Source: an uncultured Verrucomicrobiae bacterium (GTDB taxonomy: Bacteria; Verrucomicrobiota; Verrucomicrobiia; Palsa-1439). Taken from it: DNA of 64,000 nt. Below, in pieces: positions 1-4,903 of this stretch. A program made the position numbers and the translations under genes. The notes beneath the pieces are model-generated. The model was not told the origin of the DNA. It searched no databases and saw only the letters and a program-made list of their open reading frames with translations. Each line of letters begins with the position of its first letter. Within the stretch, counting starts at the first letter, position 1. The stretch lies in assembly GCA_963836315.1 (NCBI GenBank), contig CAWIJG010000002.1, positions 867,001 to 931,000 of the forward strand, given 5' to 3'.

Positions 1-362
1 GGATGGTGGTTTCTTGGTTCATGGTGTGTCCTTTTAACTCACACACTTATCCACACCAAGTGTCCACCAAATCGGGGCAAGGGCAGTTTACACTGGCCAG
101 CCACGGAGTGAATTCTTACCATCAGAGACTCGATCTGCTGCCCTCGTACTTCAAATTCCATCCACGCATCACCAGTCCCGCCGCCCGCTTTTCGTTATCA
201 TTCTGAGCCGACGCTCCGCCACGTCCCCGGCCGCCTCCCCGCTCCGAGTCGTTTGCGGAACTGAATTCTGGTTCTTCCTTCAACCTCCCGTCTCCCGGCT
301 CGCGTGTCGTTTACGGAGTCTGTCTCCTGAATCCTCTCGCTCCACACCACCCGTCGCCCGCC

Positions 363-389
363 ATGATATGCTCCAGTGGAGCATATCAT
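363..389. repeat. 27-bp perfect palindrome ATGATATGCTCCA-G-TGGAGCATATCAT (13-bp arms)
   Basis: Read directly: 363-375 is the exact reverse complement of 377-389. Lies in an ORF-poor region. Confidence 0.9.
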
Positions 390-499
390 TCAAAAGGGGG
401 GAGTCGTTGACCTCTGACATATTCCGGTTTGCAGGCCGCTCAGTCCCTTACCCCGCCTCTTTCCGATCATCGTCCCTCAATGCCACAGCCGAATGCCTG

Positions 500-520
500 A
501 GACATCAGTATCTGATGTCT
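500..520. repeat. Inverted repeat / hairpin AGACATCAG-tat-CTGATGTCT (9-bp arms, 3-nt spacer)
   Basis: Read directly from sequence; arms are exact reverse complements. Confidence 0.8.
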
Positions 521-931
521 GAAGCCGGGCGTTGTCCCGATTTGAACTGGCTAAATTCAGCTTCCAGTCGCATTCTCTCGTCAAGCCAGCCAGGGCATGG
601 TGATAATCAGGAGCGTTTATGAAGTTCAGAATAATCCTGCCGAGTATCTACGCGATTCTTTACATCAATATCGGTTATTGTGGTGCTCACCGCGAAGGGG
701 ATGTTTGCGGGGTTTTGGTCAATTTGTGTGACTACTCCCTGGAGTGAACTTCTGCCATTGTTGCTCTATAAACTCTTTGAACCGCTTCCCCCGAATCCGT
801 GGTTTACGTGGTCTGTTCAAATCGCTTTTGCCGCATTCAACGGGCTGATTTATTTCTTTACTGGGTGGGGAATTGATAGCTGGCTGGCGTCGCGCAAACG
901 GTAGTTATCGCACCATCTACCACACGGGAAG

Positions 932-1003: not shown

Positions 1004-1266
1004 AGCAAATGCCGCACGTCGTACTCCCGCGGCAACCTCTGGCGCGACGGCGGACCCGCGTCCCCCGTCCCGATAGATGTCACGTGTCCGGCTGACGAAC
1101 CCACGCATCGTCAGACGAACCGTCTTGCCACCTCAACTCGCCGTGCGAAAAGCTTTATCCGCCTAAAAAGCCGTGCCCGACGACAGCACCCAGTCCGCCA
1201 ACAGGGTTTTGACACTGAAACTCTTCTTCTTGGTCTTATTATTGACAGTTTCACTGGCCGTGGCAC

Positions 1267-1683
1267 TCACCGTGACCGTCTCCAGCACCGGTACCCGGTC
1301 TTCGATAGCTTGACCTTGGAAATCTTCAGGCTTTTGACAGTGATGGTAATCCCCGGCGGGATCTGGGCCAGGACAAAATCCACCACGTTGCTTTCCAGCG
1401 CTGCCTGGCCGTCGGCGCCAACCGCCAGCGTCAGTTGTTTCGTCGTGTTTGTATAAGTTCCGTCGACCTCGTTGGTCCCGACCAGCAGACTCCACGTTCC
1501 GTCATCCAAAAACACGGCGGTCGCCGCGTTCGTCTCCGCCACTTTAAGCTTGCCGACCGATAATAGGTTTATGGCGTTCACGTCCCAGACTGAATTCGTG
1601 TTCGCGCCGAACGCCGCCAACTGCCCGATGAATCCCGCCAGACATGCCGCCACCAAACAAACAACCCCTGTGTGTTTCCTCAT
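1267..1683 (-). CDS. Hypothetical secreted protein (N-terminal signal peptide)
   Basis: 138-aa ORF with ATG at 1683. N-terminus MRKHTGVVCLVAACLAGFIGQLAAFGA is signal-peptide-like. No recognisable domain. Confidence 0.5.
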   Translation of the reverse strand: MRKHTGVVCLVAACLAGFIGQLAAFGANTNSVWDVNAINLLSVGKLKVAETNAATAVFLDDGTWSLLVGTNEVDGTYTNTTKQLTLAVGADGQAALESNVVDFVLAQIPPGITITVKSLKISKVKLSKTGYRCWRRSR

Positions 1684-3940: not shown

Positions 3941-4903
3941 ATGAATGAAATCCTCGGGTTTATGGTTCGCCATGGGTTGCCGGTCTTGTTCGTGATCGTC
4001 TTCATCGAACAATTGGGCGTGCCTCTGCCGTCCCCGCCGTTTCTCTTGGCTGCGGGCGGTCTGGTGGGCATCGGCAAAATGAATCCCATGCTGGCGCTCC
4101 TTCTGGCTGCTGGGGGCTCGTTGGCGGCGGACACCATCTGGTTCTACCTCGGTCGCTATCGCGGCAGTCGCATCATAAAGCTTCTGTGCCGTATTTCGCT
4201 CGAGCCGGACACGTGTGTCTTGCGAACCGAGAACGTCTTCGCGCGCTACGGCACGCGCGGCATTGTGTTTGCAAAATTCATTCCGGGTCTTACCACTGTG
4301 ATGCCGCCGCTGGCAGGAATGTACGGGGTGAGCATCCGTCGGTTCCTCGCCTTCGACGGCCTTGGAGCGCTTCTTTATTCAGGGTGCTTCATTCTGCTGG
4401 GGCTTCTTTTCAGCAGCCAGCTCCAACAGGTGGCCGATGCGTTGGATCGACTGGGACGTGGCGCGCTTGTGCTGTTGGGGTCGCTTTTCGTGGCGTACAT
4501 CGCGTTTAAGTTCATCCAACGACAACGCGTGTTGCGGAAATTGCGCATCGCGCGAATTACCGCGGAGGAACTTCGTCAACGACAGGAAGGTGGTGAGGCG
4601 GTCTTCATCGTGGATCTGCGCTCGGAGTTGGCCGTCCAGGGCGACCCGTATCGCATTCCCGGCGCGCGGCATTTGCTCGCGGACAACGTCGAGAAATGGC
4701 TCCCCAATATCCCTCGCAATCAGGAGGTCATCCTCTATTGCTCGTGCCCAAATGAAGCCAGCGCCGCCCGTGCGGCGTTCATCCTCTACAGGCGCGGAAT
4801 CACCCGCGTCCGACCCCTGTTGGGAGGCTTGGATGCCTGGCGGGAGCGGAAATATCCGCTGGAACCGCACCTCGACTTCGCAGCCCAGGAACCAACCCGG
4901 TGA
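3941..4903 (+). CDS. DedA-family membrane protein fused to a C-terminal rhodanese domain
   Basis: 320 aa. N-terminal ~200 aa is DedA-like (FIEQLGVPLPSPPFLLAAG, multiple TM). C-terminal ~100 aa is rhodanese-like with a Cys loop (EVILYCSCPNEASAARAAFIL). Confidence 0.75.
   Translation: MNEILGFMVRHGLPVLFVIVFIEQLGVPLPSPPFLLAAGGLVGIGKMNPMLALLLAAGGSLAADTIWFYLGRYRGSRIIKLLCRISLEPDTCVLRTENVFARYGTRGIVFAKFIPGLTTVMPPLAGMYGVSIRRFLAFDGLGALLYSGCFILLGLLFSSQLQQVADALDRLGRGALVLLGSLFVAYIAFKFIQRQRVLRKLRIARITAEELRQRQEGGEAVFIVDLRSELAVQGDPYRIPGARHLLADNVEKWLPNIPRNQEVILYCSCPNEASAARAAFILYRRGITRVRPLLGGLDAWRERKYPLEPHLDFAAQEPTR

Follow-up and report, generated by a model that had tools for sequence, protein, structure and literature searches.

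PadR-family repressors act as dimers that read palindromes symmetrically, and a dimer occupies about 18–28 bp of DNA (PMC5728393). In promoters, the proteins of PadR subfamily 2, about 110 aa long, bind inverted repeats of the ATGT-N8-10-ACAT type (PMC3506622); LmrR binds the promoter of its own gene (PMC4534193). The site described here is a 27-bp palindrome found in a 64-kb stretch of DNA (the window) from an uncultured Verrucomicrobiae bacterium. On comparative sequence evidence, it is the predicted operator of a previously uncharacterised verrucomicrobial clade of PadR subfamily 2, an autoregulatory repressor site being in itself ordinary. The system resembles those of LmrR (Lactococcus lactis lmrR and lmrCD promoters) and of Bacillus cereus bcPadR1/2 in its small regulator (111–125 aa) with one winged helix-turn-helix (HTH) and a single C-terminal helix. 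With LmrR it shares the dyad-symmetric site in the promoter of its own gene and the presence of more than one site near the gene, as for PlmrR (PMC4534193, PMC3506622). It differs from both in that the dyad spans 27 bp (13-1-13), lies directly against the start codon and contributes the -10 hexamer, and in that the clade is verrucomicrobial.

The parallel with the Bacillus subtilis PadR–padC system concerns the palindrome read by one dimer via two winged HTH motifs and the size of the DNA, 28 bp in the complex (PMC5728393). The B. subtilis protein, unlike the one considered here, belongs to subfamily 1, is about 180 aa long and recognises an 18-bp core of 6-bp repeats with a 6-bp spacer; in the clade of the window-type site, Ser or His takes the place of the conserved alpha-3 tyrosine. 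The canonical PadR box, ATGT-N8-10-ACAT, is not matched by the palindrome, which reads ATGC-N9-GCAT (three of four bases per half), and this mismatch points to a clade-specific operator. Dyads of the orthologues also read ATGT-N5-ACAT, ATTC-N9-GAAT or ACAT..ATGT.

The initial annotation had placed at 363–389 a palindrome of 27 bp with arms that are exact reverse complements, and it lies at exactly these positions (Table 1). The two 13-nt arms, 100% complementary around a 1-nt spacer, form the longest perfect inverted repeat in the window, the runners-up having 10-nt arms, and the size of the dyad suits a dimeric winged-HTH protein. The site is AT-rich, as had been described (G+C of 11/27, i.e., 41%, versus ~60% for the window). 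The annotation also held that a palindrome of this length is unlikely by chance in 64 kb. Arms of at least 13 nt appeared in only one of 60 dinucleotide-preserving shuffles of the window (p ~0.02), which makes it unusual for one window. By our own estimate, however, chance alone would produce one or two palindromes of this kind in a several-Mb genome, so that its significance had to be judged from conservation and recurrence. No second copy of the half-site was found in the window at up to two mismatches. At three mismatches there were 20 matches against 9.2 expected, none of them paired, and the excess was treated as an effect of composition.

Table 1. Features of the palindrome region and of the clade operator (positions in the window unless another contig is named)
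Feature	Position	Strand	Sequence or remark
IS3-family insertion sequence	1-85, continuing in L001 11109-12382		1274 bp
Upstream repeat module	189-238	+	TTTTCGTTATCATTCTGAGCCGACG..CCGCCTCC; 92% to L009 unit 64-113
Window-lineage stretch between the two modules	239-342	+	~104 bp; degenerate direct repeat 245-259, 303-317
-35 position, degraded	339-344	+	GCTCCA, 2/6 to TTGACA; 17 nt upstream of the -10-like hexamer
Repeat block (promoter spacer, dyad, downstream flank)	343-447	+	TCAAAAGGG..GTCGTTGAC..TGACATATTCC..TTGCAGG; 79% to L009 unit 117-221
-10-like hexamer	362-367	+	CATGAT; base before the dyad and its first five bases
Perfect 27-bp dyad (13-1-13)	363-389	none	ATGATATGCTCCA-G-TGGAGCATATCAT
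Second hairpin/dyad	495-525	+	GCCTGAGACATCAG-TAT-CTGATGTCTGAAGC; -20 kcal/mol, z = -4.0
Clade operator consensus			ATGAT-n6-CA-n-TG-n6-ATCAT
Site pattern of the clade dyad			ATGATnnnnnnCAnTGnnnnnnATCAT

That the palindrome is non-coding agrees with our analysis, as the ORFs starting within it showed no coding signature. A hidden small protein, encoded by the ORF MLQWSISFKR... with its start in the dyad, was considered and rejected: differences among the copies fell equally on the three codon positions (7/7/7), an indel and a stop codon occurred among the copies, and no relatives were found among predicted proteins. The term "leader region" used for the surroundings turned out to be inaccurate. 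The palindrome lies within a 533-bp intergenic stretch (86–618), bounded by a terminal inverted repeat of an IS3-family element on one side (278 bp away) and by the gene starting at 619 on the other (229 bp away).

A near-identical contig (L001, ENA sample ERZ25039529; 99.3% identity) reaches beyond position 1 of the window, and the window proteins cluster at at least 90% identity with proteins of Verrucomicrobiia MAGs. In this contig the IS3-family element is complete: it comprises OrfA (HTH_Tnp_1), which starts at window position 22 on the minus strand, OrfB (rve) and an A-run frameshift site, and its 25-nt terminal inverted repeats (TGCCCTTGCCCCGATTTGGTGGACA), of which the left one occupies 61–85, are perfect. 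The element occupies an identical position in both assemblies, and its flanking 3 bp (AAC and AAG) form no exact duplication. Over 10.2 kb, alignment of the window with L001 opened 19 gaps, a sign that one of the assemblies, or each of them, may contain indel errors.

On the other side of the palindrome, the overlapping ORFs 619–747 and 680–904 together make up one conserved membrane-protein gene of ~96 aa with a 1-nt frameshift. Its relative P0082 is 61% identical, matching across both parts, and the C-terminal end reads YFFTGWGIDSWLA[ST]RK. The frameshift lies near 660–680 in both assemblies, L001 having a further 1-nt homopolymer deletion; the gene is either a pseudogene or carries a long-read homopolymer error. 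It has a Shine–Dalgarno sequence of its own (AGGAG, 609–613) and a promoter-like site at 578–607. Farther downstream, an imperfect hairpin, TGCCCTATCGGGC-AAAC-GCCCGATAGAGCA, is present at 978–1007; it may be a terminator lacking a U-tract, and its CCCGATAGA recurs at 1069–1077. The gene for a signal-peptide protein at 1162–1683 (minus strand) encodes 173 aa in L001 and is split into ORFs of 138 and 110 aa in the window.

A search for the motif elsewhere, proposed in the initial annotation as a check, showed that it is not unique. The identical 27-mer was found in the related Verrucomicrobiia MAG SPRUCE 672 (locus L008, 3990–4016), ending 2 nt before the ATG of a padR gene. The encoded protein of 125 aa matches the Pfam family PadR (PF03551, E = 1.9e-15) and aligns end to end with structures of PadR subfamily 2, e.g., 4EJO and LmrR (3F8B/3F8C). 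MAG SPRUCE 672 has two padR copies, 92% identical (L008 on contig 219 and L027 on contig 218), with common upstream regions and different downstream genes, which may be paralogues or else variants from different strains placed in one bin. An exbB-exbD-tonB-tolB-pal-like cluster lies downstream of one of them. Neither the 64 kb of the window nor the adjoining 3.7 kb of L001 was found to contain a padR gene, and the only weak tblastn match of padR in the window lay inside the pyruvate kinase gene. A regulator of the matching S-type (helix TTVSRVLRH) was not located for the source genome either, the close homologues that were looked up coming from other samples.

The recurrence of the site was scanned with its 19-nt core in one genome per species, and eight loci were obtained. 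Four of them, with six core copies, all belong to MAG SPRUCE 672, and their similarity to the window extends into the flanks. The other four (Vecturithrix, Janthinobacterium, Hyphomicrobium, and an actinomycetotal locus) had unrelated flanks and no PadR match. Their number is, by our own estimate, close to what chance would give for 18 specified bases in 596 Gb, and these four outlying loci look like chance. In one of them (L003 5237–5263, Janthinobacterium sp. Mn2066) the core sits in a different perfect 27-bp palindrome, GGAATATGCTCCA-C-TGGAGCATATTCC, nested in a longer imperfect inverted repeat, again with unrelated flanks and no PadR match nearby. A scan of metagenomes added ten core loci; these came without exception from SPRUCE peat samples, in contexts already found. 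Viral contigs gave no match to the palindrome.

The search for homologues of the PadR protein returned about 50 clusters. A 13-1-13 dyad with 11–13 of the 13 arm positions matching precedes padR in all ten orthologue lineages (58–93% protein identity), ending in each case 2–3 nt before the start codon. Many homologues of 121 aa start with MI[YDC]VSDIYH..M, the peptide obtained by translating ATGATAnnnGTCAGTGACATnTATCAT in frame, and more than 20 further clusters were called with this read-through N-terminus, MI[YDC]VSDIYH. Downstream of padR, different lineages have different genes.

Within the padR-linked dyads, the outer bases ATGAT...ATCAT and the central CA-n-TG are conserved, and positions 6–11 vary symmetrically on both arms (ATGC/GCAT, ATTC/GAAT, GGTC/GACC, TATG/CATA, and CATT/AATG). 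The inner half-site goes along with the alpha-3 recognition helix of the cognate protein: CTCCA occurs with TVSRVLRH or TVHRVLRH, GTCA with TVYHVLHH, and TTCA with TLYNVLRH. Inside the CTCCA group, ATGC versus GGTC at positions 6–9 pairs with Ser versus His in the helix. The covariation as a whole is a descriptive one across ten lineages.

Scanning all fetched DNA with the family pattern revealed further dyads near padR, each of the type proper to its lineage. In L008, L025–L027, L029 and L032, two or three stand in tandem upstream of the gene; others follow padR ahead of the next gene (L022 4470, a perfect dyad, and L024 4514). The copies before padR are found, for example, at 4690, 4809 and 4972 in L025, at 3826 and 3990 in L008, and at 2947, 3056 and 3280 in L032, with a spacing of 109–224 bp from centre to centre. 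Such multiple copies suggest cooperative binding or looping at an autoregulated promoter. The flanks of the secondary dyads in distant lineages are unrelated to those in the window; hence it is the dyad matched to its cognate protein that is conserved, and not a larger repeat.

The dyad is also embedded in a regular promoter layout. All ten padR-linked sites have a TTGnnn hexamer, with three to five of six matches to TTGACA, 17–18 nt upstream of (C/T/G)ATGAT, and the last five bases of this -10 hexamer are the first five of the dyad. The left tip, ATGAT, is invariant in nine of nine sites and its mirror image in the right arm varies, as expected if the left tip doubles as the -10 element. Transcription should therefore start inside the dyad, near its centre. 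Positional conservation, symmetric covariation and promoter geometry together point to the dyad as an autoregulatory PadR operator, so the suggestion in the initial annotation of an operator for a dimeric HTH regulator gains strong comparative support, with an identical 27-mer abutting a PadR-family gene and the dyad recurring in ten orthologue lineages.

In the mechanism that we propose, a dimer of a PadR subfamily 2 protein, from a family conserved in Verrucomicrobiia, would bind the dyad as its operator. At padR itself the dyad extends over most of the -10 hexamer and over the likely start of transcription; the bound dimer would occlude both and block RNA polymerase, resulting in negative autoregulation. 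The sequence itself, the constant position of the dyad, its covariation and the geometry of the promoter are observed, whereas binding, repression and any effect in the window are our inference.

The copy in the window is a promoter-operator module without padR, lying in a patchwork of duplicated and decaying copies. The repeat block around the dyad and the upstream module both correspond to parts of a 391-bp unit that is tandem in L009 and present also in L005 and L006 of the MAG, and the window itself holds a single copy of the module. A different IS3-family element (L009 3–1189) adjoins the upstream end of the tandem operator-repeat array, much as in the window, and such repeat-rich intergenic regions may accumulate insertion sequences.

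We consider it likely that the palindrome is an orphan copy of the PadR subfamily 2 operator, probably still bound, which may serve either as a decoy or reservoir for the repressor or, facing the gene at 619–904, as a roadblock or a weak promoter under regulation. The main rival, that the site is a non-functional relic, i.e., a duplicate of the padR promoter-operator module in decay, its symmetry due to a recent copying event or to gene conversion, seems to us unlikely, although several features agree with it. The -35 hexamer is degraded (two of six matches to TTGACA versus four of six in most MAG orphan copies), a 104-bp stretch splits the two modules, padR is not nearby, and the neighbourhood contains an IS3 insertion and a frameshifted gene. 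The degraded -35 and the promoter-like site and Shine–Dalgarno sequence that the downstream gene has of its own mean that the window site could be such a relic. Against it stands the preservation of the dyad, identical to the L008 operator at 27 of 27 positions and to the MAG orphans at 26 of 27, whereas the right flank agrees at 40–42 of 60 (~70%); at the rate of the flanks, 27 unchanged positions would have a probability of 0.7^27, or ~7e-5 by our own arithmetic. The secondary sites in distant lineages, moreover, evolve along with their cognate operator. An identity of the dyad above that of its flanks points either to selection that still maintains binding or to gene conversion, and a perfect dyad amid decayed flanks and a decayed -35 suggests that the site most likely still binds the repressor.

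The initial annotation had offered, as a second possibility, a stable RNA hairpin in a 5' leader. A 12-bp stem-loop acting instead of the DNA site or besides it, e.g., by masking the start of the padR mRNA or by stabilising the transcript, is in our judgement improbable. The stem itself is physically possible (-17 kcal/mol; predicted range -17 to -19 kcal/mol, z about -4.3) and would end 2–3 nt before the AUG. Compensatory changes keep the pairing, and among 12 transition-type asymmetries, 10 give G.U and two A.C on the sense strand, counts that are not independent. With the -10 hexamer formed by the left tip, however, the -35/-10 geometry makes the transcript start near the dyad centre, without the left arm. 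Moreover, of the 25 asymmetries, 13 are mismatches that would break the stem, the would-be loop, CA-N-TG at the centre, does not vary, and changes in the inner half-site go with changes in the recognition helix of the protein. Neither does the dyad resemble a known RNA element: in Rfam 15 the best match at the site scored 20.5 bits (gathering score 60, E = 1.5), and the repeat unit of the MAG had no match at E ≤1. No tRNA was found. An intrinsic terminator was likewise rejected, as the terminator scan was empty at the palindrome and its AT-rich stem is followed by TCAAAAGG on the plus strand and GGCGGGCG on the minus strand, with no U-tract.

A second hairpin, without a U-tract, lies ~130–140 nt downstream of the operator. 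It reads AGACATCAG-TAT-CTGATGTCT in the window versus CTGATACCTTA-ATGAC-TAAGGTATCAG in the MAG, at an equal position after a common TCAATGCC block. The MAG copies lie at 1781–1809 and 2172–2200 in L009 and at about 3143–3171 in L005, and the variants among them are G.U-compatible on the sense strand only (two lineages in all, the window and the MAG). A speculative reading, to which we give little credence, is that the orphan modules are a duplicating cassette that spreads the control of one repressor, each being a PadR-gated start of a non-coding transcript of ~130–165 nt ending at this hairpin. If true, it would amount to a repressor-controlled family of small RNAs or to the growth of a regulon by a dispersed promoter-operator repeat.

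That the palindrome is a mobile-element junction, with its arms as abutting terminal inverted repeats of a MITE or IS and the 391-bp units as head-to-tail copies, is hardly credible: the arms do open with TG and close with CA, the motif is multi-copy and tandem with a 391-bp period in L009, and IS3-family elements adjoin the repeat both there and in the window, but the dyad has no relationship to the ends of the neighbouring IS3 element, no transposase goes with the repeat, the copy alignments showed no target-site duplication or bounded unit, viral contigs gave no match, and transposon ends would leave unexplained the constant position of the dyad before padR despite unrelated flanks. A 13-nt likeness of the IS3 terminal repeat to 532–544, considered as a remnant of an IS end, was at chance level by our own estimate. 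A replication origin was also considered and rejected, the DnaA-box-like TTATCCACA at 48–56 lying inside the IS3-family element and no switch of GC skew being seen at the window start.

Dispersed intergenic repeats that carry regulatory sites include the Correia elements of Neisseria and the enterobacterial REP/BIME and ERIC sequences. The repeat of MAG SPRUCE 672 seems to resemble them in being multi-copy, intergenic and modular, with a strong palindrome and both tandem and dispersed copies. Unlike them, it was found to have no terminal inverted repeats, target duplications or transposase, it seems to be derived from the promoter-operator of one regulator, and it is present in a single copy in the window.

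To our knowledge, the phylum of the Verrucomicrobiia has almost no mapped transcription-factor sites. The dyad gives a concrete operator consensus and a promoter layout for an uncharacterised PadR clade of Verrucomicrobiia, and the covariation between operator and recognition helix could help to derive rules of DNA recognition by PadR proteins. The orphan copies and the tandem arrays raise the question of whether dispersed operators act as decoys or serve to recruit genes into the regulon.
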